Shown here one piece after another: positions 47,970 to 63,939 of a DNA stretch of 64,000 nt (its first letter is position 1; every line of letters starts with the position of its first letter). The stretch comes from an uncultured Gemmatimonadaceae bacterium. Its GTDB lineage: Bacteria; Gemmatimonadota; Gemmatimonadetes; Gemmatimonadales; Gemmatimonadaceae. The notes below the pieces were generated by a model, which was not told the origin of the DNA, searched no databases, and saw only the letters and a program-made list of their open reading frames with translations. The translations under genes were made by a program, and so were the position numbers. The stretch spans positions 518,540-582,539 of the forward strand of contig CAWHHI010000003.1 of assembly GCA_963829055.1 (NCBI GenBank), written 5' to 3'.

Positions 47970-48042
<73 letters not shown>

Positions 48043-50112: not shown

Positions 50113-50221
50113 TAGGCTTTGATCGTTCGCCGATCAGCTCCCGCGGATTAGCGCGTTTCATGCTACACGGCTTCGCCAGGGTGTGGCGTATCCGGCCTCT
50201 CATTCACCGGCAGGAGGCATT

Positions 50222-51613
50222 GTGCGTCTTGGCATGCTCGAAGTAGCGAGGCTCATGTCCGCGCTCATCGCGGCAGTTACGGTTGCGGCGTGCAACAACG
50301 ATGACAATGCAGTTCAGCCGACAACCCAATCGTACACGCTCGCCGTCGCCAACGCGACGGTGACCACAGCGCCGGGTGGAACGGCGACGCAGACCGTCAA
50401 CATCACGAGAACGGGCGGCTTCACCGGAGCTGTCGCGCTCACCGCCACGGGCCTCCCGACAGGCGTGACAGCAGCGTTCGATCCGCAAAGCGCCACCGGC
50501 AACTCGTCGACCCTGACGCTCACTGCCGCCGCCAACGCAGCACCAGGGAACGCAACGGTCACGGTGAAAGGGACGGCAACGGGACAGGCCGACAAGACCG
50601 TCACGTTCCAGCTGACGGTCAACGCCGCACCGGCCGGCGGGTTCACACTGGCCGCGAACCCGGCGACACTCACCATTCAGCAGGGAGCGGCCGGCACATC
50701 GACGGTGAACATCACGCGGACCAACGGGTTCGCTGGCGCCGTCACGCTCACGGTGACCGGTCTGCCTAACGGCGTGACGGCCACGTTCAATCCCGCGGCG
50801 CCGACGACAAACTCCTCGACGCTGACGCTGACGGCATCGGCGACCGCGGCGACCGGTTCAGCCGCCGTGACGATCCGCGGGAACGCGACAGGGCTGACCG
50901 AGCAGACGACCACGCTCGCCTTGACCGTGAACGCCCCTCCAGCCGGTGGCTTCACGCTGGCGATGAACCCCGCGGCGCTGACGGTGGTGCAGGGTCTCTC
51001 CGCCACCTCCACCGTGAACATTACGAGAACCGGTGGATTTGCCGGCTCGGTCAGCCTCACGGCAAGCGGCCTGCCTAACGGCGTGACGGCGGCGTTCAAC
51101 CCGACGGACGCCACGGGGGCGACATCGACGCTCACGCTCACGGCGTCGGCGACGGCTGCGATCGGCACCGTAACGGTCACGATCAAGGGCACGTCGCAAG
51201 GTCAGACCGATCAGACCACGACGCTTGCGCTCACCGTCAACATCCCGGGCAGCTTCTCGCTGGAAGTCAATCCGAAGACGCTCACGATTCAGCAGGGAGC
51301 GAATGGCACGGCGACGGTGACCATCACGCGAACGGGCGGGTTCACCGGCGCAGTCACGCTGACCGCAATCGGCCTGCCTAACGGGGTGACGGCCACGTTC
51401 AACCCGGCCGCACCAACCACGGACCAGTCGACGTTGACGCTCACCGCCTCGGCGACGGCCGCACCGGGTTCGACGACCGTGACGATTCAGGGGAACGGGA
51501 CGGGTCTCGGCGAACACACGACGACGATCACGCTGATTGTGAGCAGTCCGGCAGGGAGCAGCGGGAATGTCGGTGCGAGTACGGGAAGGTCCTCGACCGG
51601 GAGCTCACCGTGA
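50222..51613 (+). CDS. Lipoprotein with four ~100-aa Thr/Ala-rich Ig-like beta-sandwich repeats (C-terminus possibly truncated)
   Basis: AGGAGG before GTG 50222; lipobox VAAC; four repeats of TVNITRTGGF.G.V.LTA.GLP.GVTA.F.P...STLTLTA. Confidence 0.85.
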   Translation: MRLGMLEVARLMSALIAAVTVAACNNDDNAVQPTTQSYTLAVANATVTTAPGGTATQTVNITRTGGFTGAVALTATGLPTGVTAAFDPQSATGNSSTLTLTAAANAAPGNATVTVKGTATGQADKTVTFQLTVNAAPAGGFTLAANPATLTIQQGAAGTSTVNITRTNGFAGAVTLTVTGLPNGVTATFNPAAPTTNSSTLTLTASATAATGSAAVTIRGNATGLTEQTTTLALTVNAPPAGGFTLAMNPAALTVVQGLSATSTVNITRTGGFAGSVSLTASGLPNGVTAAFNPTDATGATSTLTLTASATAAIGTVTVTIKGTSQGQTDQTTTLALTVNIPGSFSLEVNPKTLTIQQGANGTATVTITRTGGFTGAVTLTAIGLPNGVTATFNPAAPTTDQSTLTLTASATAAPGSTTVTIQGNGTGLGEHTTTITLIVSSPAGSSGNVGASTGRSSTGSSP

Positions 51614-51746
51614 TCCCGCTCTAGCGCGTGTCCGGACCGACGGGCGGCCGCATGCTGGCCGACCGCTGACTCGAACGAGCGACGGGCGCGGCTCCTCGGA
51701 GCCGCGCCCGTTTGCTTTCTTCCGACTGAGGCGTAATAACGGACCG

Positions 51747-51905
51747 GGGGTCAAGTACGTGCAGCGGAACGCGCTCGCCGGGAAGCGCTTCCGGTCGTGG
51801 GAGCATCTGAACGCGTGGCTGCTCGAGTGGGCCACGACGGTCGCCGACACGCGCGTGCACGGGACGACGCACGAGGTGCCGCGCGAGCGCTTCGCCCGGG
51901 AGGTG
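51747..51905 (+). pseudogene. IS21-family transposase (IstA) fragment, downstream part
   Basis: GVKYVQRNALAGKRFRSWEHLNAWLLEWATTVADTRVHGTTHEVPRERFARE. Confidence 0.88.
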
Positions 51906-52066
51906 AATCAGCCAACGATCATCGGTGGGGACCATTGAGCGCACCCCAATGCCCACCTCTGTCGAGGCCCCCGTGTCCTGAGGCCGTCGTCGTGGCAATG
52001 CGGGTTCGGGGTTGCGGTGCTACATGGGCGGACCATCTTGTTCGACTCTCCGTCTGAGCCATACCC

Positions 52067-55000
52067 ATGTCGCGCGCCGTATATGCCCTCCTGGTCGGGA
52101 TCGACGAGTACACCTCGCCAGTGCCGCCTCTCAAGGGCTGCGTCAACGACATCACAGCGGCGGAGCTGTACCTCCGCGATCGCTACTCCGGTCAGGCAAA
52201 CGCGCTCGACATCGTTTCGCTGACCAATGCTTCCGCTACTCGTGATGCGGTCATCGACGCCTTTCGCCGCCAGCTAGGCCGAGCCGGAGCCGACGACACC
52301 GCTCTGTTTTACTTCAGCGGACACGGGTCGCAGCAACCCTGCGCACCAGAACTGCTCTACCTCGAGCCGGACGGAATGGACGAGACGCTCGTCTGCTACG
52401 ACAGCCGTATTCCGGATCAATACGACCTCGCTGACAAAGAGCTCGCGGGGCTGATCCACGAGGTTGCCGCACGCGGCGCGCACGTCGTCGTGATACTCGA
52501 TTGCTGCCACTCAGGGAGTGGTACGCGCGCGCTCGAGACGGCAGTGCGACGCGCGCCGACGGACGATCGTCCGCGTCCGCTCGACAGCTACATAGTCGAT
52601 CCGCGACGACCGGTCAGCACGACCAGGCGTGACGCACCCAGCAGCACGAGCGGCTGGGCTCAGCTGCCGGAAGGCAAACACATTCTGCTTGCCGCGTGTC
52701 GTGCCGACGAGCGCGCCCAGGAGATCCCGTTAGGCGGCAGCCGACGAGGCGTTTTCTCCTACTATCTGCTCGACGCGCTCGCGCGGGCGCGCGGCGCGCA
52801 GACGTACGGGTCGATCTTCCGACGGGTCAAGGCGCTCGTGGAGCAGAAGGTGTCGTCACAGTCGCCCGAGATCGAATGGAGCGACGCCGACGAGCTGAAT
52901 CAGCCGTTCCTCGGCGGCACGGCCGTCGCGGAGGAGCCGTACTTCGTGCTGCGATATGACCCCGAGCTCGGATGGGCGATCGATGGCGGTGCGGTGCACG
53001 GGATCCAGCCGGCCGACGGCGATGAGACGACCACGCTGGCGATCCATCCGTTCGACATGCGAATGGACGCGAGGCGTGACACGAAGCCGTTGGCGACCGC
53101 ACGCGTGTTCGAAGTCCAGCCGCACGTGAGTCGCGTAGACATCGACGTAGCCGACGTTGAGCTCGACGAGACGCAGACGTACGTGGCGGTCGTCATCGGC
53201 GTGCCGCTACCGCTCCTGGGTGTTGTCATCGACGGCGATGACGCAGGCGTACACGCCGCGCGTCAGGCATTGGCGACCGCGGGGCCCGACGGCGGGGCTT
53301 CGATCTATGTACGCCTCGCCTCGGATGCCGCGACCGCCGAGCTCCGGATTCACGCAGAAGCCGAGCGCTACACGATCATGCGCGCAACCGGTGATCGTCG
53401 TCTCGTCGGCGACGTTTCGGGCTACGACGCGGATGTTGCGTTGCGCGCGATCCGGCGAGTCGAGCACATCGCGCGGTGGACGACAATTGCGCGGTTGTCC
53501 AATTCTGGCAGTGGTATTGCGCCTGACGCGATACAGCTCGAGGTGCATCGCGTCGTCGGGACGGCCGTGAAGCGGTCCTCGGTCGATGTGCCAACGGAGC
53601 TGGTGCCGAGTGGCCGTGAATTGCGCTTCGAGTACGAGTACCGGGGCGGCAGGTGGCAACCACCATCGTTCAAGATCAAGCTGCGCAACGATGGCGATCA
53701 GCCTTTATGGTGTGCGCTGCTGACGCTCTCCGAGTCGTTCGAGGTAAACGCGAAGGGTCTGCTTTCGGCGGGCAGGGTACGGCTCGAGCCAGGGCAGGAG
53801 GTGTGGGCCAAGCAGGGACAGCCCATCAGCACCGGCGTTCCAGAACCACTCTGGCGCGCGGGAGTCACAGAGCGGCGCGACGTCGTCAAGCTCATTGCGA
53901 GCAATCGCGACTTCAACCCGTCGCTGTTGGAGCAGGAGAAGCTCGACACGCCGAGAACCGCGGGAGCCAAACGCGCGGTTCCGGGGCGGAGCTCGCTCGA
54001 CAGGCTCATGGCGCGGGCGGACACACGCGAGTTCCTGGACAGTGATTCATCGTTCGCGGACTGGGTGACGTCGGAGCTGTCTATTACGACCGTGCGTCCG
54101 CTCGACAGCGTGGCGCTCGCTGACGGGCGGGCAGTCGAGGTCACCACGGGCGTGACGCTCGAGCCACCAGCCGGGTTTCGGGCACGCGCACGCCTAACGA
54201 GCGTATCCGACGGCGGTCGAGACCTCGGCAACGCGCTCGTGCCGCCCATCCTTCGTGACGCGGCGGTGAGCGAGCCCTTTGGGTTCTCGACTGCGCGTGG
54301 CAGTGACCCGGGTCTCACCGTTCTCGAGCTGATCGACGTCGCCGATCACACGGTGGTGACGCCGGAGGCGCCGTTGACTGTCGTGATCGACGCGGGCAAC
54401 GCGCGTGACCTACCGACGGTGGGCGATGCTAGTGTAGCGCATTTGCTTCCCGTCGCGTTCGATGGCGAGTTCTATCTGCCGCTCGGGCACGCGACGTCTC
54501 GTGACGGGACCGTCAGGGTCACGCTCGACCGGTTGCCGGCGCCGGTCGCGAGCGACCGGAGTCTCTCCGGTTCCATTCGGATCCTGCTGCACAAGGTCGT
54601 GAGCAAGGTGCTCGGGACACCCTACGAGTATCCACTTCTCACGGTGGTCGATATCAACCTCGATGGCACGGTCACGTACGTGAAAGACCCGTCGGCGGTG
54701 CGGGCGCGTGTGACCGACGCCGACCGGGTGCTGCTCTACGTGCACGGGATCATCGGCGACACGCGTGTGATGGCGGCGAGCGCGTACACGCCTAACGCCG
54801 TCGGAATACTCGGCGTGCCACCTCTGGCCGATCGGTACGATCTCGTGCTGGCGTTCGACTACGAGAACGTACAGACATCGATCCAGGACACCGCGCGGAC
54901 GCTGGGCAAGCGGCTGGCGGATGTGGGGCTCGGTGCTGGCCACGGCAAGACGCTCCACGTGATCGCCCACTCGATGGGCGGGCTGGTGTCACGCTGGTTC

Positions 55001-55573
55001 ATCGAGCGGGAGGGCGGTCGAGCGGCGGTCCAGCGGCTGGTCACGGTGGGCACACCTAACGACGGATCGCCGTGGTCAAAGGTGGAGGATGTCGCGACGA
55101 CGCTGCTGTCACTTGCGCTGAATGGCATCGGCGCGTGGCCGGCGACAGTGCTGGGCGCCTTGGTGAGCGGCGTCGAGAGGGTGGATGTGACGCTGGACTC
55201 GATGCAGCCGGGCTCCGAGCTGTTGAAAACGTTGTGGGCGAGCGATGATCCCGGCGTGCCGTATACGCTCATCTCGGGAAATACGACGCTCATTGCGACC
55301 GTCGTGACGGGTGACAATCGAGTGGCGCGGCTGCTGTCACGTGTCCTCTCGCCGTCGGCGCTGCATCGGGTGGCCGGGCTGGCGTTCTTCGGCGAGCCTA
55401 ACGACATTGCCGTTCGCGTCGAGAGCGGGCATCGCGTACCCATGACACGAACCCCTCGCCCTGTGGTGGTCCAAGTCGCGAGCGATCACCTGTCGTACTT
55501 CCGCGATCCGGCAGTGCTTCGCGCGCTCGCCGACGCGCTGCCGCGTGGAGCGACAGCCGAGGCGGTATCGTGA
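52067..55573 (+). CDS. Caspase-like (C14) protease fused to a C-terminal PGAP1/lipase-like alpha/beta hydrolase
   Basis: YALLVGIDEY, LKGCVND, YFSGHG and ILDCCHSG (intact His-Cys dyad). C-terminal VHGIIG, IAHSMGGL, GTPNDGS, NDIAV and DHLSYF. Confidence 0.92.
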   Translation: MSRAVYALLVGIDEYTSPVPPLKGCVNDITAAELYLRDRYSGQANALDIVSLTNASATRDAVIDAFRRQLGRAGADDTALFYFSGHGSQQPCAPELLYLEPDGMDETLVCYDSRIPDQYDLADKELAGLIHEVAARGAHVVVILDCCHSGSGTRALETAVRRAPTDDRPRPLDSYIVDPRRPVSTTRRDAPSSTSGWAQLPEGKHILLAACRADERAQEIPLGGSRRGVFSYYLLDALARARGAQTYGSIFRRVKALVEQKVSSQSPEIEWSDADELNQPFLGGTAVAEEPYFVLRYDPELGWAIDGGAVHGIQPADGDETTTLAIHPFDMRMDARRDTKPLATARVFEVQPHVSRVDIDVADVELDETQTYVAVVIGVPLPLLGVVIDGDDAGVHAARQALATAGPDGGASIYVRLASDAATAELRIHAEAERYTIMRATGDRRLVGDVSGYDADVALRAIRRVEHIARWTTIARLSNSGSGIAPDAIQLEVHRVVGTAVKRSSVDVPTELVPSGRELRFEYEYRGGRWQPPSFKIKLRNDGDQPLWCALLTLSESFEVNAKGLLSAGRVRLEPGQEVWAKQGQPISTGVPEPLWRAGVTERRDVVKLIASNRDFNPSLLEQEKLDTPRTAGAKRAVPGRSSLDRLMARADTREFLDSDSSFADWVTSELSITTVRPLDSVALADGRAVEVTTGVTLEPPAGFRARARLTSVSDGGRDLGNALVPPILRDAAVSEPFGFSTARGSDPGLTVLELIDVADHTVVTPEAPLTVVIDAGNARDLPTVGDASVAHLLPVAFDGEFYLPLGHATSRDGTVRVTLDRLPAPVASDRSLSGSIRILLHKVVSKVLGTPYEYPLLTVVDINLDGTVTYVKDPSAVRARVTDADRVLLYVHGIIGDTRVMAASAYTPNAVGILGVPPLADRYDLVLAFDYENVQTSIQDTARTLGKRLADVGLGAGHGKTLHVIAHSMGGLVSRWFIEREGGRAAVQRLVTVGTPNDGSPWSKVEDVATTLLSLALNGIGAWPATVLGALVSGVERVDVTLDSMQPGSELLKTLWASDDPGVPYTLISGNTTLIATVVTGDNRVARLLSRVLSPSALHRVAGLAFFGEPNDIAVRVESGHRVPMTRTPRPVVVQVASDHLSYFRDPAVLRALADALPRGATAEAVS

Positions 55574-58500
55574 CGTTAGCGCCGTCGACAGCGAGTCCGG
55601 GGCTGTGGGTGAATCCGGCGTGGAAGTCAGGCACGCCGGGAACGTTCGCCGTTGTCGTCGGTGCGAGCCGTTACGAGCACCTCGCCGGTGGTCACGGGGC
55701 GCTGGCGACGGACAACTTCGGGCTCACGCAGCTCAGCGCATCGGCGTTGAGTGCGTACCGCTTCTTCGAGTGGTTGCGGGGCGATTACGCAAATGCGGCA
55801 AGTCCGATCGCCATGTGCTGGCTACTGCTCTCGCCGTCGGATGCGGAGCGGTCGGTCGAGCCCGGAATCGCGGAGAATGTGGCTGCGCCGACGTTGCCTA
55901 ACCTGCAGCGCGCGGTAGGCGAGTGGTTCACGGCGATGAAGCAGCTTCCCTCGAGCGCCGCGAAGGACAGTCGAAGCATTCTTCTGGTTCAGCGGTCACG
56001 GATTCGATGTCGGCAGTGAGCACCTGCTGTTGCCTTCGGACTATCTCGAGCCGCCGCTGTCGATGCCGGATCGTGCGGTGTCGGCTCGACGTCTCGTTGC
56101 CGCGATGGAAGCGCTCGAGACGCGAGATCAGCTGTTCTTCCTCGACACCGGGCGCGAGCAGCTGCAGCAACTCCAGACGTTCGGCATTACGGGGATGCCG
56201 CTCCTGCCGGTGCCGATCGCTCGCACTGGCCCGGTCGATCGGATGTCGGTGACCCTCGGCGCCAGCATGCCGTCGGGGCGAGCGTTTCAGCCCGGCAATC
56301 CGAAGGACGGAATTTCGTTCTTTGCGCAGGCGGTGATCGAGGGGCTCAGGGGGGAAGGTGGGCTCAAGCCCGACTGCAGCGTGTCGCCGTGTGTGGTGAG
56401 GTTGTTTCCGTTCGTGAGCTTCGTGCAGAGTCGCGTGCAGCAGGTGCTGAGCGAGTACAACGTGACCGGCCAGGCCGTGAGGCTGCAGCTCGAGGGGTCG
56501 TCGCACGACGTCGTGCTCACCCAGGTTCCTGCGCCTGTCGCGCAGACGGCGCAAGCCCAAACGAGCGCTAACGAAGCTTCGCTGGAGACTCAGACCGTAT
56601 TGGCGGCCACACCCACGGTGGACGCCGCGCCGACGTATATGGTGGCAGCCACCGCGGCCATCGTGACGCAGGGCGCGACGGGCACCAGCACGATCACCAT
56701 CACGCGAACCGCCGGCTTCGCCGGCAACGTGGCGTTAGCCGCCGAGGGGTTGCCGACGGGCGTCACGGCCGCATTTACGCCTAACAACACGAACACGAAC
56801 GGATCGGTGCTGACGTTGACGGCTGCCGCGAATGCCGCCGTTGGCACGTCGACCATCACCGTGCGCGGCACCGCGACCGGGCAGACGGACAAGACGACGA
56901 CCGTCCAGCTCACCGTGAGCGCCGCCGGTGGCGGGGCGAGCTTCTCGGTCGCAGCCGGTGAAGCGAAACTTGACAATGCCTATGCGCTACTGATCGGTGT
57001 CGGCGGCGCGTCGGAGAAGGACACGGCGCTCATTCGGGACGTTCTCGTCGACCAACGATACGGCGGCTACGGCGAAAATCGCGTTAGGCGTATAGTCGGC
57101 TCCGAGGCCAACCGGGAAGGGATTGTCGCGGCGCTTCAGGAGCTCGCGTGGATCACCGCGCCTGGTGAGCGCATCCTTATCTACTGCTCGAACCCGGGCA
57201 CGCAAGTTCCGGCGTCAAAGGGCCCCAATGCGCTCGAGAGCGCGATCGTTCCCGCGGACTACGAGGAGGGGGGATTCGTCCCTGCGTCGGAGCTCGAGCG
57301 CCTGCTCGACGCGTTGAGTGGCAGGAGTGTTCTCTTCCTCGCCGACTACGCCCACGCAGCGCGCGGCCTCCGCATGGGCGCAGGCCACGTCGCGATTGCG
57401 GTCGGCGCGGAGGGGATGGCGCTCGAAGACTCGAACGCGACAGCCGACACGGCAAGCGGCCGATATGCGCGACAGCTCACCACGGGGCTGCGGGGCGGGG
57501 CTGCGGGGTTGGATGGAACGATCAGCAGTCTGGATCTGTTCGAGTACATGTCCACGAGGCTGTGGAACGATGAGGATCGGGTGGTTCTGGTCGGGGATAC
57601 GGCGGCCGATTTTGTGATAGCGTCGGGATCGTCGCCCGACTCGCCTGCTGCGCCGGCGTACGACGATGACTTCCAATACGACGTCTATGTGAGCGCGGCG
57701 GACCGCAATGCCACGACGCTCCACAGTCGCGTGCTCCCGCGGCTGATCCAGGCTGGCCTTCGGATCGCGATACTCCCGGCGATCGACACCAAACGCGGCG
57801 ATACCGATCAGCGGGCCGGCGTACGCCATGTCGCGACCGCGGAACGTGGCATTGCGCGGTCGCGTCGGACGCTCGCGCTGTTATCGGAAGTGTACGTGCG
57901 CACCGTTGCGCGTACACTGGGGAGCGTGTTCGACCGTGCGTTAGGCGCCGGGGAGGGCCGAGACCGTCTGTTGGGTGCTCGATTAGGCCGGTGGGCAACG
58001 GCACGCGCACTCGCCGACATGCGGCTACCGTCAGTGCTCGGCGATCCAGCCCAGTGGGTCTCGGTCAAGAACGCGCTGGATCTGCTCGTCGGCGACACGA
58101 CAAACGAGCCGGACGCCGACGATCGAACCGACGCCGAACCCTCGACGGACACGGAGCCCGGCTCGTACGCGCTCGTCATCGGCATCGATACGTATCAGAA
58201 ATCGATGGCTCTCCGTGGGTGTGCACAGGACGCAAAACTCATTGCCGAATTACTCTCGAATGGTGGCCCAGGATCGTCCGCGTACGACGTGCGGCTGCTC
58301 ACCGACGGTGATGCGACGCGCGAGGGAATCCTCTCCGCACTGCACGAGGTCGCGGAAAAAGCGACGAGCGACAGCACCGTTCTGATCTTTTTCGCCGGGC
58401 ATGGTGCGGACGCGGGCGACGCCGGCGCCTCGGCGATCGAGCCGACTGAAAGTGCGCTCGTCGCGGTCGACTACACCGAAGCGGATCCACGGCTGGTGAC

Positions 58501-60871
58501 GACGGCGGATCTCGAGGCGGTTCTGGCAGACATGTCTGCACGGCACATCGTAGCCCTGGCCGACGCGAGCTATGCCAATCGCATCATGCGCGGCGGGACG
58601 GGCCGAGTGCTCGTGTCCGCCGGGCGTGAAGGCGAAGTGGCGTACGAGAGTCGTGACCGCGATGCCTCAGGGGTCGGCGAGTTTTCGAGTGCCGTCATCG
58701 ACGGGATCCGTGGGGGCGCATCATCGGCCGATGGGCTCGTGCGCGTGCTCGACCTGTACGAGTTCGTCCACCGGCGTGTCGTGGCGAAGGGTCTACAGCA
58801 CCCGTACGTTGGCGGCGACCTGTCGACAAACGTAGCGGTTGCCGTGTCGCCTAACGAGATGCCGCGTGATCCGGCGGCGGGTGCGGACGGTTATCGCTAC
58901 GATGCGTACCTGAGCTTCGTGGGTGACGACGCGTCACTCGTGTGGAACGAGCTCGCGCCGCGTCTCGCCACCCTCGGGCTACGAATCGCGGTGTCGCACG
59001 ACCTCGAGGACGCGCGGTTCTACCGTGTCGCGACACCCGAGCGCGGTATCACCCAGGCGCGGCGCTCCATCGTCGTCGTGTCGGCAAAGTCGTTGGCGGA
59101 GTCGACGGCGGAGTTCGAGCGGTTGGCGGTGGCGACCATCGGGCTCGACGGAGCGGCCGCACGCACGCTCCGCATCACCACGAGCGACGATCTCGCACAG
59201 CAGATTCGCATCGAGCCACCGGTTCGCGAGTGGCTGCGGCAGGCGCCCGGATGGACGTTAGGCGCGTTGCTCGAGCGCGATGAGCAACTCACCGACCTGG
59301 TCGATCGACTGCGGGCCCCGATCGAACCGGCGGCCGCACCCGCGACGATCTTCATCAGCTACAGTCGACACGATAAAACGGCGGCGGACCGGCTTGCTGC
59401 GGCGCTACGCGGCGTCGGGTACAACGTGTGGCTCGATCAGGAGCTCAACGCGGGAGAGACGTTCCAGGCGACGCTCGAGCGAATGATCGCGGAGTGCACG
59501 ATCTTCATCCCGATCCTGTCGATAACGAGCCTCGGCCGCCAAACCGGGTATTACCTCGCCGAGTGGAATCTGGCACTCGAGCGGGGACGTCGGTCTCCGG
59601 AGTCGCGGTTCATCATTCCCGTCGCAATCGATGACGTCACCCCGACGTCGTTCTCTGAGGCGGTGCCACGCGAGCTAGCCGCGATTCAGTGGAGTCGATT
59701 GCCGAACGGGGAGGCGTCGTCGCGTTGGCTCGCGATGATCGCCGAACTCGTTCAGCGTACCAGGGCGCCGGCGGATACACCGTCCGAATCCGGTGACGCA
59801 AGCGCCCACACGATACCGCGCGAATTGCTCCCCAGGCTGTCATCCTCGTCGCGGCGAGCGCTGCTGAGCGCGGAGGGATACCGGCGTGCCGGCAACGCGG
59901 CGGTCGTGGACACGGGGCACCTGCTTGGCGGGTTATACGAGAAGCCGGAAGGCTGGGCTCATGCGGTGATGCAAGCCGCAGATTTCGACGGATCGTGGGC
60001 AGGGCTGTTCACCGTGGGTCTCGGGGAGGGTCTCCACTCGTCGGGAGCGGCGCGCGCACCATCGAGTGCGCTCGAGACCATGCGGATCTCGCGGGCGGTA
60101 CTGGCTGCATTGACCGAAGCGGGACGACTCGCCGACGAGAATCGTGCAACGACGATACAGGCCCGATATCTGCTGGCCGGCCTACTCGGCGTATCTAACG
60201 AGCCGGCCGCGGTGTGGATGGCGGACCGTGTCGAGCTCGATGTCGAGGCGTTGCGGCGTCTCATTCTCGCGGCCGTCGAGGGGTCACCACCGCTGGACGA
60301 CGTGCGGCGTCTTCGGCGTCGAGGCGCGCGGCTGGTGCTCGCGCCGGACCAGGCGCGGGCAGGGGCGCCAGTCTACGCGGCCGCGTTCAGCCCCAATGGC
60401 GCGTCGCTCGCAACCGCGCACTATGACGGCGGCGTTAGGCTCTGGAATCCAGCCGACGGGACACTCATGCGACTGCTCGGGGCGACAGGAGAGGAAGGGC
60501 ACGGCTGGGTCAACTGCCTCGCCTGGTCGCCTAACGGCGACGCCCTCGTGTGGGGGACGCAGGACGGCTCGATTCTCTTCTGGGACGCACGCACCGATGC
60601 GGTGGGGACGATTCCCGGTGTGCACGATGGGCAGGTCGTGTCCATTCGGGTGAGCCCCGACGGGCGGCTGCTCGTCTCGACGGGAGGAGACAGCTCCGTG
60701 CAGATCCGCGACTGGACCGACAGAGAAATGTTGGGTCACGGGGCAGGAGTGTATCCCGTCCAGCGCGGGATCTCCGGGATCGAATTCAATGTCGATCGCG
60801 GTCTGGTCTTCGTCGCGTCGCCGGACGGAAGCGTGACGCGATTGCCACCGTCGGCGCCGGGGTGGGCGTGA
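55570..60871 (+). CDS. Multidomain protein part 1: pseudo-caspase / Ig repeat / pseudo-caspase / TIR / pseudo-caspase / TIR / TIR / Clp-N / WD40 (+1 frameshift at ~55981)
   Basis: GTGA-coupled start. TFAVVVGASRY, then after the shift FWFSGHG...LLLPSDY...FFLDTGR; AYALLIGV; YDVYVS; YALVIGID...FAGHG...ADAS; YDAYLS; IFISYSRHD...YYLAEW; TGHLLGGL and ARYLLAGL; AFSPNG..LATA..DG.VRLW. Confidence 0.85.
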
Positions 60872-62013
60872 GCTCGGCACCGACGAATTCTGCGCCGGGC
60901 GTGGCCATGCGAGCGGCGAAGACGAGCGATGGCAGCCGAATGGTCATCGCCGGGCCAGGGGAGGCGATCAGCGTCGTTGCCCTGGAGACCGGCCGGCCGA
61001 TCGCCACGTTCGAGGGGGGCCACGCCACCGACGTCCTCGCCGTCGCGGTCACCCCGGACGATCGGCTTGTCGTCTCCGCATCGGAGGGGGGTACGATCCG
61101 CGTGTGGGAGCTCGACGGCGGACGCCTAACGCGCACGACCGAGCCTCGCGCGGGACCGCTCTGGACACTTCGTCTGGTCGAAGATGGTGACATTGCCATC
61201 GTCGGTGCGAGCGACGGGGCGCTCGTCGTCGTCGACATCACGGTCGGTCGAGTCATCCGCAGCATTCAGGCACACGACGGCGGCGTCAACGCGCTGGCCG
61301 TCTCGCCTGACGGCCGGATGCTCGCGTCCGCCGCAATGGATGGGACGACGCGCATCTGGGATCTCGCGAGTATCGGAGCCGTGCGACCGGAGCCGATCGA
61401 CCGGCGGGTAGCCCTGGCGGCAATCGAGATCGCACGCGGCGACCTGCTCGAGCGGGACGAGGACGCGCTCGTCTACGCCGTTGGCCTCGACCCACAGAAC
61501 GGCGGCATGATCGGCAATCGGCTCGCGCGCATGCTGGAGAGGCCCCAGCGCGAGAACATGGTGCAGCGACCGGCGCTCAGGTCTCGTGAGGCACGCGCGA
61601 TCCGGATGGACTCGGGCGCGCTACGAGCGAAATACGTCATTCAGACGGCGACCGAGGAGGAGCGCGGGCATGAGGAGATGCACTCGCGAGAAAGCATCAC
61701 GGACGCCGTCACCTCCGCGTTGGAGGTCGCCGAGTCGTTAGGCAATGTGCGGTCGGTGTCGTTGCCGAGTGTTGGGACGGGGGCGGCTGGGTTCGATCCT
61801 GCCACACTCGCCCCGGGCATTCTCGAGGCGATCGTGCGGCACCTGGAGCGTGGCAGCTATCTCGAGCACGTGACGCTCGTGTTCAACAACGAGGCGCACG
61901 AGCGCGCTTACAGCGACGCGCTCGCGTCGTTGCGCGCCGGCATCGAGCGCGACCAGGCGGCAGCGTCGGCCGCGACAGCCTACGTGCTGCAACTCACGCG
62001 GCCACGGAGATGA
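60868..62013 (+). CDS. Multidomain protein part 2: WD40 repeats + macrodomain (separate GTGA-coupled gene or frameshifted continuation)
   Basis: GHATDVLAVAVTPDD and AHDGGVNALAVSPDG..LASAAMDGTTRIWD; IEIARGDLL, GALRAKYVI and SVSLPSVGTGAAGF. Confidence 0.82.
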   Translation: MSSAPTNSAPGVAMRAAKTSDGSRMVIAGPGEAISVVALETGRPIATFEGGHATDVLAVAVTPDDRLVVSASEGGTIRVWELDGGRLTRTTEPRAGPLWTLRLVEDGDIAIVGASDGALVVVDITVGRVIRSIQAHDGGVNALAVSPDGRMLASAAMDGTTRIWDLASIGAVRPEPIDRRVALAAIEIARGDLLERDEDALVYAVGLDPQNGGMIGNRLARMLERPQRENMVQRPALRSREARAIRMDSGALRAKYVIQTATEEERGHEEMHSRESITDAVTSALEVAESLGNVRSVSLPSVGTGAAGFDPATLAPGILEAIVRHLERGSYLEHVTLVFNNEAHERAYSDALASLRAGIERDQAAASAATAYVLQLTRPRR

Positions 62014-62038
62014 ATCGGCTCCGGTAACGGTCGGCGAT

Positions 62039-63939
62039 GTGATCACCCTCCGTCTCGAGCTCCGACGCGCGTTTGTTGGGGAACAGGGCATCGCACTGCC
62101 GTCGAGTGCGGGAGAGGTAAACTGCTTCGTCACTGGGGATGCGGGGCTCCGGCTCGAGAGCGCCGAAGCGGTCGCGCTCCGGCTGCCGTCGGACGGAGCC
62201 GTCGCGGCGGGAGAGATCCGGTTGCGGGCGCATCTCGTCGGTGAGCGACGGTATACCGTCGAGCTGTATCTGGACGGCTCCGGGTCGGACTCAAGGTCGC
62301 TGCGCGAGTTCAGCGATACGGTGTCGGTTGCCGCACCCATCGCCGCGTTTCGACCCGAGATACTCCCGCCGCTGGACCTGCGGGTTGCCGCACGTCCGGA
62401 TGTTGTGCTCGAGGTGACCGCGACCAGCGCGAACGGGTCGGGTGGTGCACACCGCCTAACGTACCGGCTCAGCTCCCGGGTGGCCGGTGCACAGTTCGCG
62501 GCCGCGCTCGCCGGCGTAGTGGACGTCGGGCCAGTGGAGCGCAGCCGCATCCGGTCGCTGGTTCGCGATGCCGTCCGGATGTCGACTGCCGAGCAGCCTG
62601 AGGACTCGCGAGCGCGGATGGTAGCGATCGGCACGTATCTCTACGATCGATTCGTTCCGCGCGAGGGCGCAGGGGAGCTTCGCGAGATGATCGAGCAGCT
62701 CGAGACGGCGCGTCGGAATCGCATCACGACAGCGACGAAGCCGGAGCGGCCGCTCACATGGCTCATCATCGAGAACGGGACTGAAGCCTCGCTGCCGTGG
62801 GAGCTGGTGGTGCCTTACGAGTCCAACTCTCCCGGCGCGCAATTCCTCTCGGAGTGGTGGCAGATGAGTCACTGGCTCGTGGGGCTCGGTCCGCCGCTCC
62901 AGAGCGAGGTGCCCGTCGGAGATGTGGCACTCATGTATTACGGCCAATCAGTGGACGAGACCGACGACGCTCGGCAGTTAGGCGCGTGGGGACGATTGCT
63001 GAACGCGAGCATGGCCAGCGACATCAAGCAGGTGGCGGCGCCGGAAACGCCGGTGTACGGGCTACATCTTCTCAGACAGGGTAGGACGGGTGCACTCGGC
63101 ATCGCGCCGCGCGGGGCTGGTCCGGCGACCGACGAGGTTCGCCGGGCGCGACTCGATCTTCGCCTCAAGCGCCCCCTCGTCACGCTCGGTGTTCTCGATG
63201 GCCGGTCGGGCGATGAGACGAATGCGATGGATGCGTCAGCCGTCGCGGACGGCAACTGGCCGCTCGTCGAGCGGGCGCTGCCGTATCTGCGTGCTGGCGC
63301 GAGCGGCGTCGCGGGGGCGTGGTGGCAGACATCGGCAAGTTCCGACCGCGTCTTCTGGACGACCTTCTACGACCTTCTGATCGCCAGGCAGAATGTCGTT
63401 AGGCGAGAGCATCTGGCGCGCTCGGCTCGCGGTTGCGCGGGCGCTGCCGGAACGGTCCGACTGGCTCGCGTACGTGCTATTCGGGAACCCGCTGGCGCGG
63501 CCGTACGTCCCTGCGGAGAGCGAGGGGTACACGACGCTCCAATGTCGATGCCGACAGTCCTCTTCGTGTCGGGAAGGAGTACATCTTCTCGGCATCGATC
63601 CGCACGCGCCCGCCACTCTGGCATCAGGACCGGCTCGTCCGCGTGCAGAAGGACGAAGAAAGTGAGGAGGCGTCGGAGGCGCTCAGTGCTCTGTTTGTCG
63701 CGCCCGGACTGCAGGACGCCGTACCCGAGCCGGTGGCCATGCGACCTGTCGGCCGAACGATCCATGAAGCAACGTGCGCTCTCACGCCGAAGCAACCGGG
63801 TGAGTATCTGTTGACGGTCCGTCTACTCAAGGGTGATGAACGATTGCAGACGCTGCGCCTGCCATTGATCGCCAGTAACAGTCGGCCGACGAACCTCGAC
63901 GGAGAAGCGACACTCGTGTCCGTGGGAGAATCGACGTGA
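62039..63939 (+). CDS. Multidomain protein part 3: beta-sandwich + degenerate CHAT domain (frameshifts at ~63392 and ~63540)
   Basis: IGTYLYDRFVP, LPWELV, FLSE, LHLLRQG, RPLVTLG and YLRAGASGVAGAWW...FYDLL, then SLGESIWRAR...WLAYVLFGNP in the next frame. Confidence 0.75.

Follow-up and report, generated by a model that had tools for sequence, protein, structure and literature searches.

The operon considered here, three coupled genes (G1 to G3) in a 64,000-nucleotide stretch of DNA (the window) from an uncultured Gemmatimonadaceae bacterium (assembly GCA_963829055.1, contig CAWHHI010000003.1, positions 518,540 to 582,539), has its closest described relatives in several bacterial systems. In the ternary conflict systems of Kaur et al. 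(2020, PMC7159879) a caspase-superfamily domain always comes with a neighbouring alpha/beta-hydrolase gene. In a Lysobacter pair, LcCaspase cuts the LcHydrolase zymogen at two Arg sites to yield toxic fragments, HHpred places LcHydrolase nearest to lipases and oligopeptidases, and phage defence is the role of those related protease-effector modules that have been tested (Evans et al. 2025, bioRxiv 10.1101/2025.11.14.688446). SAVED-CHAT cleaves and activates PCaspase in type III-B CRISPR, a system in which PCaspase also has a dedicated inhibitor (Steens et al., bioRxiv 10.1101/2023.06.23.546230). In type II Thoeris a Macro domain reads His-ADPR (histidine-ADP-ribose; bioRxiv 10.64898/2025.12.03.692087), and in type IV Thoeris a TIR signal activates a caspase-like effector, PsCaspase, which has a small C-terminal domain (bioRxiv 10.1101/2024.10.24.620036). 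Orthocaspase-Abhydrolase fusions have been noted in three cyanobacteria, and orthocaspases are linked in reviews to programmed cell death (PMC7475262).

Set beside these, the operon is partly familiar and partly new. Its caspase/alpha-beta-hydrolase module is already known, computationally since 2020 and experimentally since 2025; the novelty lies in the pseudo-protease/TIR/Macro partners and in a WD40 propeller divided between two proteins. The original prediction, made from the letters of the window, was of an undescribed immune or programmed-death system, and that description suits the architecture as a whole, for which no match was found, but not the module. No literature on the three-gene architecture or on the Macro plus pseudo-CHAT family introduced below was found, though supplementary files may list such. 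None of the PADLOC system models fits, in keeping with what had been anticipated; only generic domain models match, namely ‘caspase’, WD40 and Argonaute-associated TIR models. On the logic of its domains there is about an even chance that the operon is a conflict system of abortive-infection or programmed-death type. The three overlapping same-strand genes are:

52067 to 55573, plus strand: G1, an orthocaspase, a beta-rich middle and a lipase-like alpha/beta hydrolase; ATG start, 1168 amino acids (aa), intact
55570 to 60871, plus strand: G2, 1766 aa without an extra base at 55979; GTG start overlapping the G1 stop
60868 to 63939, plus strand: G3, 1023 aa after three insertion/deletion (indel) edits; GTG start overlapping the G2 stop

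Both junctions, G1/G2 (at 55570-55573, as had been seen at the outset) and G2/G3, are GTGA overlaps and, on their sequence, the three genes are translationally coupled.

The first gene is what it had been taken to be, an intact caspase-like protease joined to a hydrolase, in an open frame with conserved catalytic residues and a lipase-like fold at its C-terminal end. Its two enzymatic domains are:

52082 to 52879, plus strand: G1 caspase domain, residues 6-271, dyad H86/C147 (Peptidase_C14, PF00656, E 7e-21)
54629 to 55546, plus strand: G1 hydrolase domain, about residues 855-1160, triad S969/D1113/H1141 (DUF7379, PF24096, E 3.3e-15 over residues 889-1035)

In an alignment of 82 G1-family sequences H86 and C147 are invariant, as is D1113 of the triad, with S969 and H1141 nearly so; also invariant are R161, R168 and R170 in the inter-subunit linker, and R831 is nearly invariant. 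The AlphaFold (AF2) model, with a mean predicted local distance difference test score (pLDDT) of 79.2, has the caspase followed by beta-rich domains of about 570 residues and the alpha/beta hydrolase, and its low-confidence loops are at 150-156, 187-193 and 828-833. Foldseek matches the caspase part to GSU0716 (3bij), metacaspases and MALT1, and the hydrolase part to the bacterial lipases 1ex9, 6wpy and 1tah (E 2e-7 to 4e-7). Among the PADLOC models only the generic ‘caspase’ one matches G1, and no paper on DUF7379 was found. G1 shares with the published module an intact-dyad caspase linked to a lipase-like triad hydrolase and, like the G1 locus, that module is found among accessory conflict loci, in soil-dwelling and multicellular bacteria. 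In contrast, G1 is one fused 1168-aa chain with the beta-rich residues between the two enzymes, and the sensor is here in two partner genes instead of being fused to the protease. The likeness of its hydrolase to LcHydrolase is one of description and lipase-like fold.

The G1 family is large. Of 8000 candidates scored, 903 proteins are relatives at E<=0.001; the 120 listed all have both PF00656 and PF24096, are 1144-1277 aa long and cover 98-100% of G1 at 44-52% identity, apart from one at 94% (P0121), and many carry cyanobacterial source names. The contig encoding P0121 was not recovered in scans of the genome and metagenome collections. For the family, 45 genome loci and 46 metagenome loci were fetched. 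A profile of the hydrolase revealed no gene in them for a stand-alone hydrolase; its 26 matches at E<1e-30 are C-terminal, in chains about 1150-1270 aa long or in fragments cut by a contig end.

Is what follows G1 a gene at all? As assembled, the coding downstream is in five frame pieces (55570-56016, 55940-60868, 60535-62010, 61874-63811 and 63403-63936), with a relative of 86% identity revealing an extra short one at 63390-63545. These five frame changes within 8.4 kb could be taken to mean that the operon is a decaying, non-functional remnant whose frame breaks are real in the strain. Logan contigs from four rhizosphere metagenome runs (four coded studies, one of the runs perhaps being the source sample) were aligned to 55570-63939, gaps in contig cover in single runs not being taken as absence. 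They are near-identical to the window, with 0-3 other letters per listed piece, and differ from it by one base fewer at 55979 (contigs of X1, X3 and X5), one base fewer at 62006 (X1 and X2), one base fewer at 63392 (X2 and X3) and an extra ‘TG’ behind 63546 (X2 and X3). At all four sites each covering contig, from two to three runs per site, carries the frame-restoring indel, and the need for frame correction that had been recognized earlier is thereby borne out. With the four edits there are open frames of 1766 aa (55570 to the stop at 60869-60871) and 1023 aa (60868-63939) devoid of in-frame stops, and dropping any single edit closes a frame. The 86%-identical relative is a single open frame of 1004 aa spanning three of the indel sites. 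A TPR-CHAT gene on another contig of the same assembly, C5 (L119:2744-4764), is also in several pieces, which again suggests assembly indels. With four breaks contradicted by all covering contigs and the fifth being, as follows, a conserved gene boundary, the remnant explanation seems very improbable indeed, and the pseudogene look is, on the sequence comparison, most likely an assembly artefact. A practical warning is that other apparent pseudogenes of this genome may have the same origin; the small indels here, four within 8.4 kb, are outside long homopolymers.

The fifth break is of another kind. The TGA at 60869-60871 overlaps the GTG at 60868, the X3 contig over 60717-61068 is gapless against the window with the same sequence at the boundary, and a homologue, P0243 (1059 aa, 46% identity, from a 55-kb contig), starts no more than 2 residues from that GTG. 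By these comparisons the break is a true gene boundary, kept in P0243, so that there are three genes and not two, and since P0243 starts at the same place, the G2/G3 split looks to be old and conserved. The ‘giant partner’ of the original prediction was in consequence two genes.

The order of domains in G2, from Pfam on sub-pieces, BLAST to P0008, P0044 and P0049, and MAFFT alignments, is:

55630 to 56540, plus strand: caspase-like domain 1, His kept, Cys position not Cys, with the indel at 55979 (Pfam E 0.022 and alignment with the G1 caspase)
56618 to 56917, plus strand: Ig-like domain (61% identity to P0041 repeats; no Pfam match)
56945 to 58114, plus strand: caspase-like domain 2, His and Cys both replaced, and TIR-like domain 1 (BLAST to the caspase-TIR module of P0049, P0044 and P0008)
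58154 to 59329, plus strand: caspase-like domain 3, His kept, Ser at the Cys position, and TIR-like domain 2 (Peptidase_C14 E 3.3e-16, TIR_2 E 0.0042)
59348 to 59704, plus strand: TIR 3, the sole well-scoring TIR (TIR_2 E 1.1e-28; sub-piece 6.1e-22)
59834 to 60292, plus strand: weak Clp-N-like double repeat (only PDB sequence match the ClpC N-domain, E 0.096; no Pfam match)
60335 to 60868, plus strand: C-terminal four WD40 blades (Pfam WD40; blades counted by eye; complex model)

Caspase-like domain 2 has no Pfam match and TIR-like domain 1 matches TIR_2 at E 0.0034. The predicted order of the partner’s domains was right, with strong backing for caspase-like domain 3, TIR 3, WD40, Macro and the CHAT-like part, but less for the rest. 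In the MAFFT alignment all three caspase-like domains lack the catalytic Cys, as expected of pseudo-caspases; some residual activity with serine as nucleophile may be possible in the third (58154-58894). TIR 3 can be aligned with the SPARTA TIR-APAZ TIR (E about 2e-6), and in line with expectation it retains a Glu on the Glu there (chain position 77), which, with the position by our own count, we take to be the catalytic residue. It is plausible from this alignment that TIR 3 is an NAD (nicotinamide adenine dinucleotide)-cleaving TIR.

The Ig-like domain of this cytoplasmic protein has another flavour. It resembles the repeats of a neighbouring 476-aa protein (50183-51613), whose N-terminus looks by eye like that of a lipoprotein and which has a weak fn3_6 match. 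At the DNA level it matches 5 of 6 same-genus genomes and is the sole part of G2 and G3 with matches among 40 relatives. Its sequence likeness to the local repeats, together with those same-genus matches, suggests that it was borrowed from a local surface-protein family.

G3 begins with the other WD40 blades and reads:

60868 to 61440, plus strand: N-terminal four WD40 blades (Pfam; model of the orthologue P0370; complex model)
61402 to 61959, plus strand: Macro domain (Pfam Macro E 1.5e-6; PDB sequence and VIA matches)
62015 to 63480, plus strand: separase/CHAT-like pseudo-protease, with two beta-sandwiches, a helical part and a caspase-fold core; indels at 62006 and 63392
63498 to 63936, plus strand: beta-sandwich tail (strands 858-984 of the P0370 model); indel at 63546

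The foreseen Macro domain is present. Its PDB sequence matches are to macro domains of PARP14, PARP15 and MacroD2 (down to E 2.3e-8), VIA gives Z about 18-19.7 to macro domains, and it resembles ADP-ribose binders and hydrolases (including MacroD2 and Af1521). By eye the segment reads ‘VYAVG’ where hydrolytic macrodomains typically have ‘NAAN’.

The 455-aa region after the Macro domain matches nothing in Pfam, CHAT (PF12770) included. An exhaustive HMMER search of 1.84 billion representatives gave 130 proteins with it at E<=0.001 (76 at <=1e-10 and 27 at <=1e-30), about 90-3300 aa long. The family is rare as well as unnamed. In 34 of 38 tabulated homologues the region is near the C-terminus and followed by a tail of about 160-190 aa, the other four tails being of 3, 5, 67 and 360 aa, and the family motifs are PWEL, GLHLLR, KRPVVxLS and FLRAGASAVVGPWW. 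Aligned by hhalign with the CHAT domains found beside G1 relatives, the region scores 97.1% probability (E 6.5e-11, 219 columns); the column facing the CHAT catalytic Cys has no Cys in any of 35 sequences (V, L or I in 33), and that facing the catalytic His has His in 3 of 35, the window’s copy not being among them. The fold was modelled on the intact 86%-identical orthologue P0370 (1004 aa) with 35 family sequences, to a mean pLDDT of 82.2. VIA-align against 48,161 chains put separase first (5fc2_B, Z 20.6, root-mean-square deviation (rmsd) 4.9, 306 aligned, model residues 478-862) and Csx29/TPR-CHAT next (7y9x_B, Z 19.0, rmsd 4.6, 309 aligned; 7zoq_A, Z 18.3; 7y83_D, Z 17.6). The separase and Csx29 matches cover residues 369-862 of the model, and the WD40 and macro matches its N-terminal parts; Foldseek on the same model was filled by WD40 matches, the separase/CHAT likeness surfacing in VIA. 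In the ESM Atlas the closest clusters with a name consist of CHAT proteins (score 0.96). The ‘pseudo-CHAT’ identity originally proposed is in sequence and modelled fold well supported, and it holds across the family: the fold is shared with separase and Csx29, whereas the dyad is absent throughout the 35 aligned members, the N-terminal repeats are WD40 instead of TPR, and a Macro domain is inserted. With no competent counterpart in G2 or G3, G1 is by its residues the sole catalytically competent caspase-fold protease of the operon.

Four blades end G2 and four begin G3. A complex model of 60335-60868 with 60868-61440 has an ipSAE (interaction prediction score from aligned errors) of 0.81, against 0.00 for the best of three controls; that mark is attained by 51 of the 78 solved complexes, as against 2 of the 108 mismatched pairs. 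The runs share at least 54% of their contacts and partner pLDDT is at least 76. Contacts occur at both ends of both halves, the first blade of each half touching the last blade of the other and so closing the ring. On the model G2 and G3 probably join through a composite eight-bladed propeller, and where a single scaffold had been envisaged there are two proteins. A propeller split over a conserved, coupled gene boundary is an unusual way of joining two proteins.

How might the parts work together? No transmembrane-like segment was found in G1 to G3, the hydrophobic windows being only in modelled beta-strands, and as modelled G2 and G3 are soluble, with four dead caspase-fold domains and one Macro domain. 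The chances seem evenly poised that in this operon a protease-gated death effector is controlled in trans, with G2 and G3 as its regulators, and the mechanism we favour draws, with confidence about midway, on domain logic and precedent. G2 and G3 would form a sensor/regulator complex via the composite propeller. A trigger sensed by the propeller or the Clp-N-like part would activate TIR 3, and an ADP-ribose-derived product would be read by the G3 Macro domain. Next, the pseudo-CHAT domain and the pseudo-caspases would gather G1 caspase domains in the manner of cFLIP/caspase-8 or an inflammasome, and G1 would cut after a conserved Arg, candidates being the R161/R168/R170 linker and R831 in the low-confidence loop before the hydrolase. 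The cleavage would license the hydrolase, with cell death ensuing. The specific route from TIR to Macro to pseudo-protease to caspase has in our estimate a low probability, and that a TIR signal read by the partner’s Macro turns dead separase/CHAT and caspase domains into a template firing a caspase-lipase zymogen is, as a whole, doubtful. The cFLIP/caspase-8 and inflammasome comparison, of dead caspase-fold domains beside one live caspase on a repeat-bearing platform, is analogy only, there being no homology past the caspase fold.

The Thoeris precedents are similar in that TIR, Macro and caspase-like protease are again together, here in one operon, but TIR and Macro are within multidomain proteins of 1766 and 1023 aa. 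Unlike in type II, the G3 Macro domain is fused to beta-sandwiches and a pseudo-protease core and not to a membrane effector. Unlike in type IV, the TIR is inside G2 rather than stand-alone and, comparing with PsCaspase by its description, the G1 caspase carries beta-rich domains and a hydrolase in place of the small C-terminal domain. A looser arrangement with parallel outputs is conceivable: TIR 3 would itself be an NAD-depleting effector, the Macro domain would sense or remove an invader’s ADP-ribosylation or reset the system, and the caspase-hydrolase would be triggered by proximity, with no small-molecule signal. The nearest solved relatives of TIR 3 are indeed the SPARTA NADase TIRs, its PADLOC matches are the Argonaute-associated models, and the Macro domain matches hydrolase-type macrodomains besides binders. 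Since TIR and Macro in one operon recall type II Thoeris, and since the Macro segment by eye has ‘VYAVG’ in place of the hydrolytic ‘NAAN’, we consider these parallel outputs unlikely.

G1 relatives have company of their own. The fetched loci were scanned with Pfam and with a CHAT profile made from the first six partners, and a CHAT protein adjoins the G1-family gene in 14 of the 19 loci with enough flank. Among close relatives (at least 42% identity) whose loci extend 3 kb or more downstream, 8 of 11 have, directly downstream on the same strand, a TPR-CHAT protein about 950-1240 aa long (L005, L007, L008, L009, L010, L058, L061 and L081, but not L004, L011 and L060); L004 and L065 belong to the same contig, and L009 is close kin of L010. 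Distant relatives have an adjacent CHAT protein in 6 of 8 loci. Because of this recurrence in close and distant loci alike, the caspase-hydrolase and CHAT pair is, by gene order, a conserved module. The partners’ consensus retains the His and Cys motifs. The search for homologous two-gene loci that had been suggested at the outset shows that G1 with a CHAT neighbour recurs, while G1 with pseudo-CHAT was found in none of the other loci fetched. In three loci, cyanobacterial (L004:15431-23136, L007:17530-22257 and L008:19278-23402), nSTAND1-WD40 proteins of about 1000-1580 aa come after the G1 homologue; the CHAT partner also precedes them in L007 and L008, and those of L004 and L007 have an N-terminal caspase match. 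They add more conflict-system genes to the series. Within the window’s own genome there are about 10 CHAT-domain open reading frames (ORFs; contigs C5, C8, C9, C11, C12, C17 and C20). Another caspase paralogue, 34% identical to G1, is at C11:138276-139088, some 5 kb from a CHAT ORF, and on this ground caspase/CHAT pairs recur in this organism.

SAVED-CHAT and PCaspase are comparable in that a CHAT-family protein is likewise encoded beside a caspase-like executioner, but the window’s CHAT-like domain, with its catalytic Cys and His lost, cannot on that account be an initiator protease, and no SAVED domain or CRISPR link was seen. Might the dead domains instead restrain? G2 and G3 as brakes would hold the G1 caspase in inactive heterodimers, in the manner of an antitoxin or of short cFLIP, and G1 would be freed once G2/G3 were lost or remodelled, for instance by Clp machines acting on the Clp-N-like part or by a Macro ligand. 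There are four pseudo-protease domains to one active protease, the GTGA coupling is as tight as in toxin-antitoxin pairs, there is the weak Clp-N likeness, and the inhibitor of PCaspase is a precedent. Set against these, the Clp-N match is sub-threshold, and most relatives have as neighbour a CHAT protein with His and Cys in the consensus, for which an activating cascade is a better fit. We regard a brake as improbable and keep to G2 and G3 as activators.

The regulator half is sparsely distributed. Besides the Ig-like part there is no match to G2 and G3 DNA in the 40 relatives; the operon was not found in the 6 same-genus genomes, nor the pseudo-CHAT region in 400 other genomes of the phylum. 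The region is in 2 of 401 genomes of the phylum holding L013 (L108 and L109) and in 1 of 5 genomes reached through loci. In three other pseudo-CHAT loci the protein is of 1785-2231 aa, with a canonical N-terminal CHAT in L105 and L108 and Macro in L105 only. These loci, outside the window’s phylum, form a recurrent operon (L105:1266-15452, of the L012 genome, L108:500-12741 and L109:1110-13442), for which no description was found in the literature. The giant comes first in it and has the pseudo-CHAT domain at its end; L108 and L109 continue with a small CHAT, an unknown protein (about 253 aa), a Reg_prop propeller and HSP70, and a C11 peptidase follows in L105 and L109. By tblastn the small CHAT, 253-aa protein, Reg_prop and C11 partners have no counterpart in the window’s genome, and an HSP70 match mid-contig on C12, considered as a partner, is probably DnaK. 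Because it recurs in other phyla with different protease partners, the pseudo-CHAT family may be a general adaptor.

Several observations weigh against activation of G1 by G2 and G3 in a defence role. G1 together with pseudo-CHAT was met only in the window and in metagenome contigs near-identical to it: no fetched G1 locus has pseudo-CHAT, and none of the three other pseudo-CHAT loci has a G1 homologue. Caspase-like domains 1 and 2, TIR-like domains 1 and 2 and the Clp-N-like pair are sub-threshold or have no Pfam match. The complex score may reflect a likeness of any WD40 halves to solved propellers, one fold match, PDB 6r5y, being itself an eight-blade ring from two four-blade fragments, and the G3 Macro domain may hydrolyse ADP-ribose rather than read it. 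A defence-island setting for G1 homologues, one of the checks suggested at the outset, is weakly indicated: PADLOC matches 11 of 53 ORFs flanking nine G1-family loci, mostly with generic domains, and only L004 resembles a defence island. The genes upstream of the operon in the window look housekeeping, and the contig stops 61 bases past G3, so that more operon genes are possible beyond. As for a gasdermin gene beside the protease, the coupled genes leave no space for one inside the operon, no PADLOC gasdermin model matched in the six pieces scanned, and the ORFs at 48-52 kb have no relevant Pfam match, with the contig ending after G3.

The genomic setting is as follows. The window is the final 64 kb of a 582,539-base contig (C3) of a genome of 7.78 Mb in 20 contigs, and 4 kb upstream of the operon is:

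47970 to 48042, plus strand: tRNA-Phe (GAA), by ARAGORN

Right after it G+C drops to 0.615-0.63, against about 0.65-0.69 around. The proposed tRNA-Phe island has in its favour the tRNA and this dip, but no integrase turned up from the tRNA to the operon (48-52 kb) and the window stops at the contig end. Searches with the tRNA flank for island borders in same-genus genomes gave tRNA-sized matches only. An exact 25-base copy of the last 24 bases of tRNA-Phe and the next base occurs once, on C5 (324726-324750, minus strand), and may be the far end of the island. Beside it are a Peptidase_S8 (subtilase) gene and the TPR-CHAT gene in pieces (L119:727-5964). This split TPR-CHAT was considered as the missing G1 partner and rejected, being distantly like the usual partners and one of the genome’s many. 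As to a C3-C5 join, the last 1500 bases of C3 match themselves only, and the C5 end is without a fitting-strand match. Just upstream of G1 an ORF (51567-51938) looks by eye like the C-terminal part of an IS21-like transposase and has no Pfam match.

Such a setting bears on whether the operon is antiviral at all, or a regulated proteolysis/cell-death module that serves a social soil bacterium in development, under stress or in kin conflict, a role already suggested for orthocaspases of cyanobacteria. By the source names of the 120 listed relatives, filamentous cyanobacteria and other multicellular lineages are where members of the G1 family occur most often, the link of orthocaspases to programmed cell death in reviews points the same way, and the defence-island context is weak. 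However, the operon was not found in the 6 same-genus genomes, nor its pseudo-CHAT in the 400 other genomes of the phylum; a nearby tRNA and transposase-like remnant are the pattern of accessory mobile conflict genes; and the related protease-effector modules tested to date act in phage defence. A non-antiviral role is in our estimation quite unlikely, and a conflict system is the reading we carry forward.

If that reading and its mechanism are true, the operon encodes an inflammasome-like platform with pseudo-proteases as its coupling device, a bacterial counterpart of pseudo-caspase regulation, and in the Macro plus pseudo-CHAT family, with its 130 representative clusters, we would have nucleotide-signal receptors of a new class. 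Bacterial immunity is increasingly seen to rely on protease-gated death effectors as one of its main logics, the known examples having the sensor fused to the protease. The locus would show regulation in trans by pseudo-proteases with TIR and Macro, linking Thoeris-like signalling to caspase activation, and would offer a bacterial parallel to control of the cFLIP or MALT1 type.

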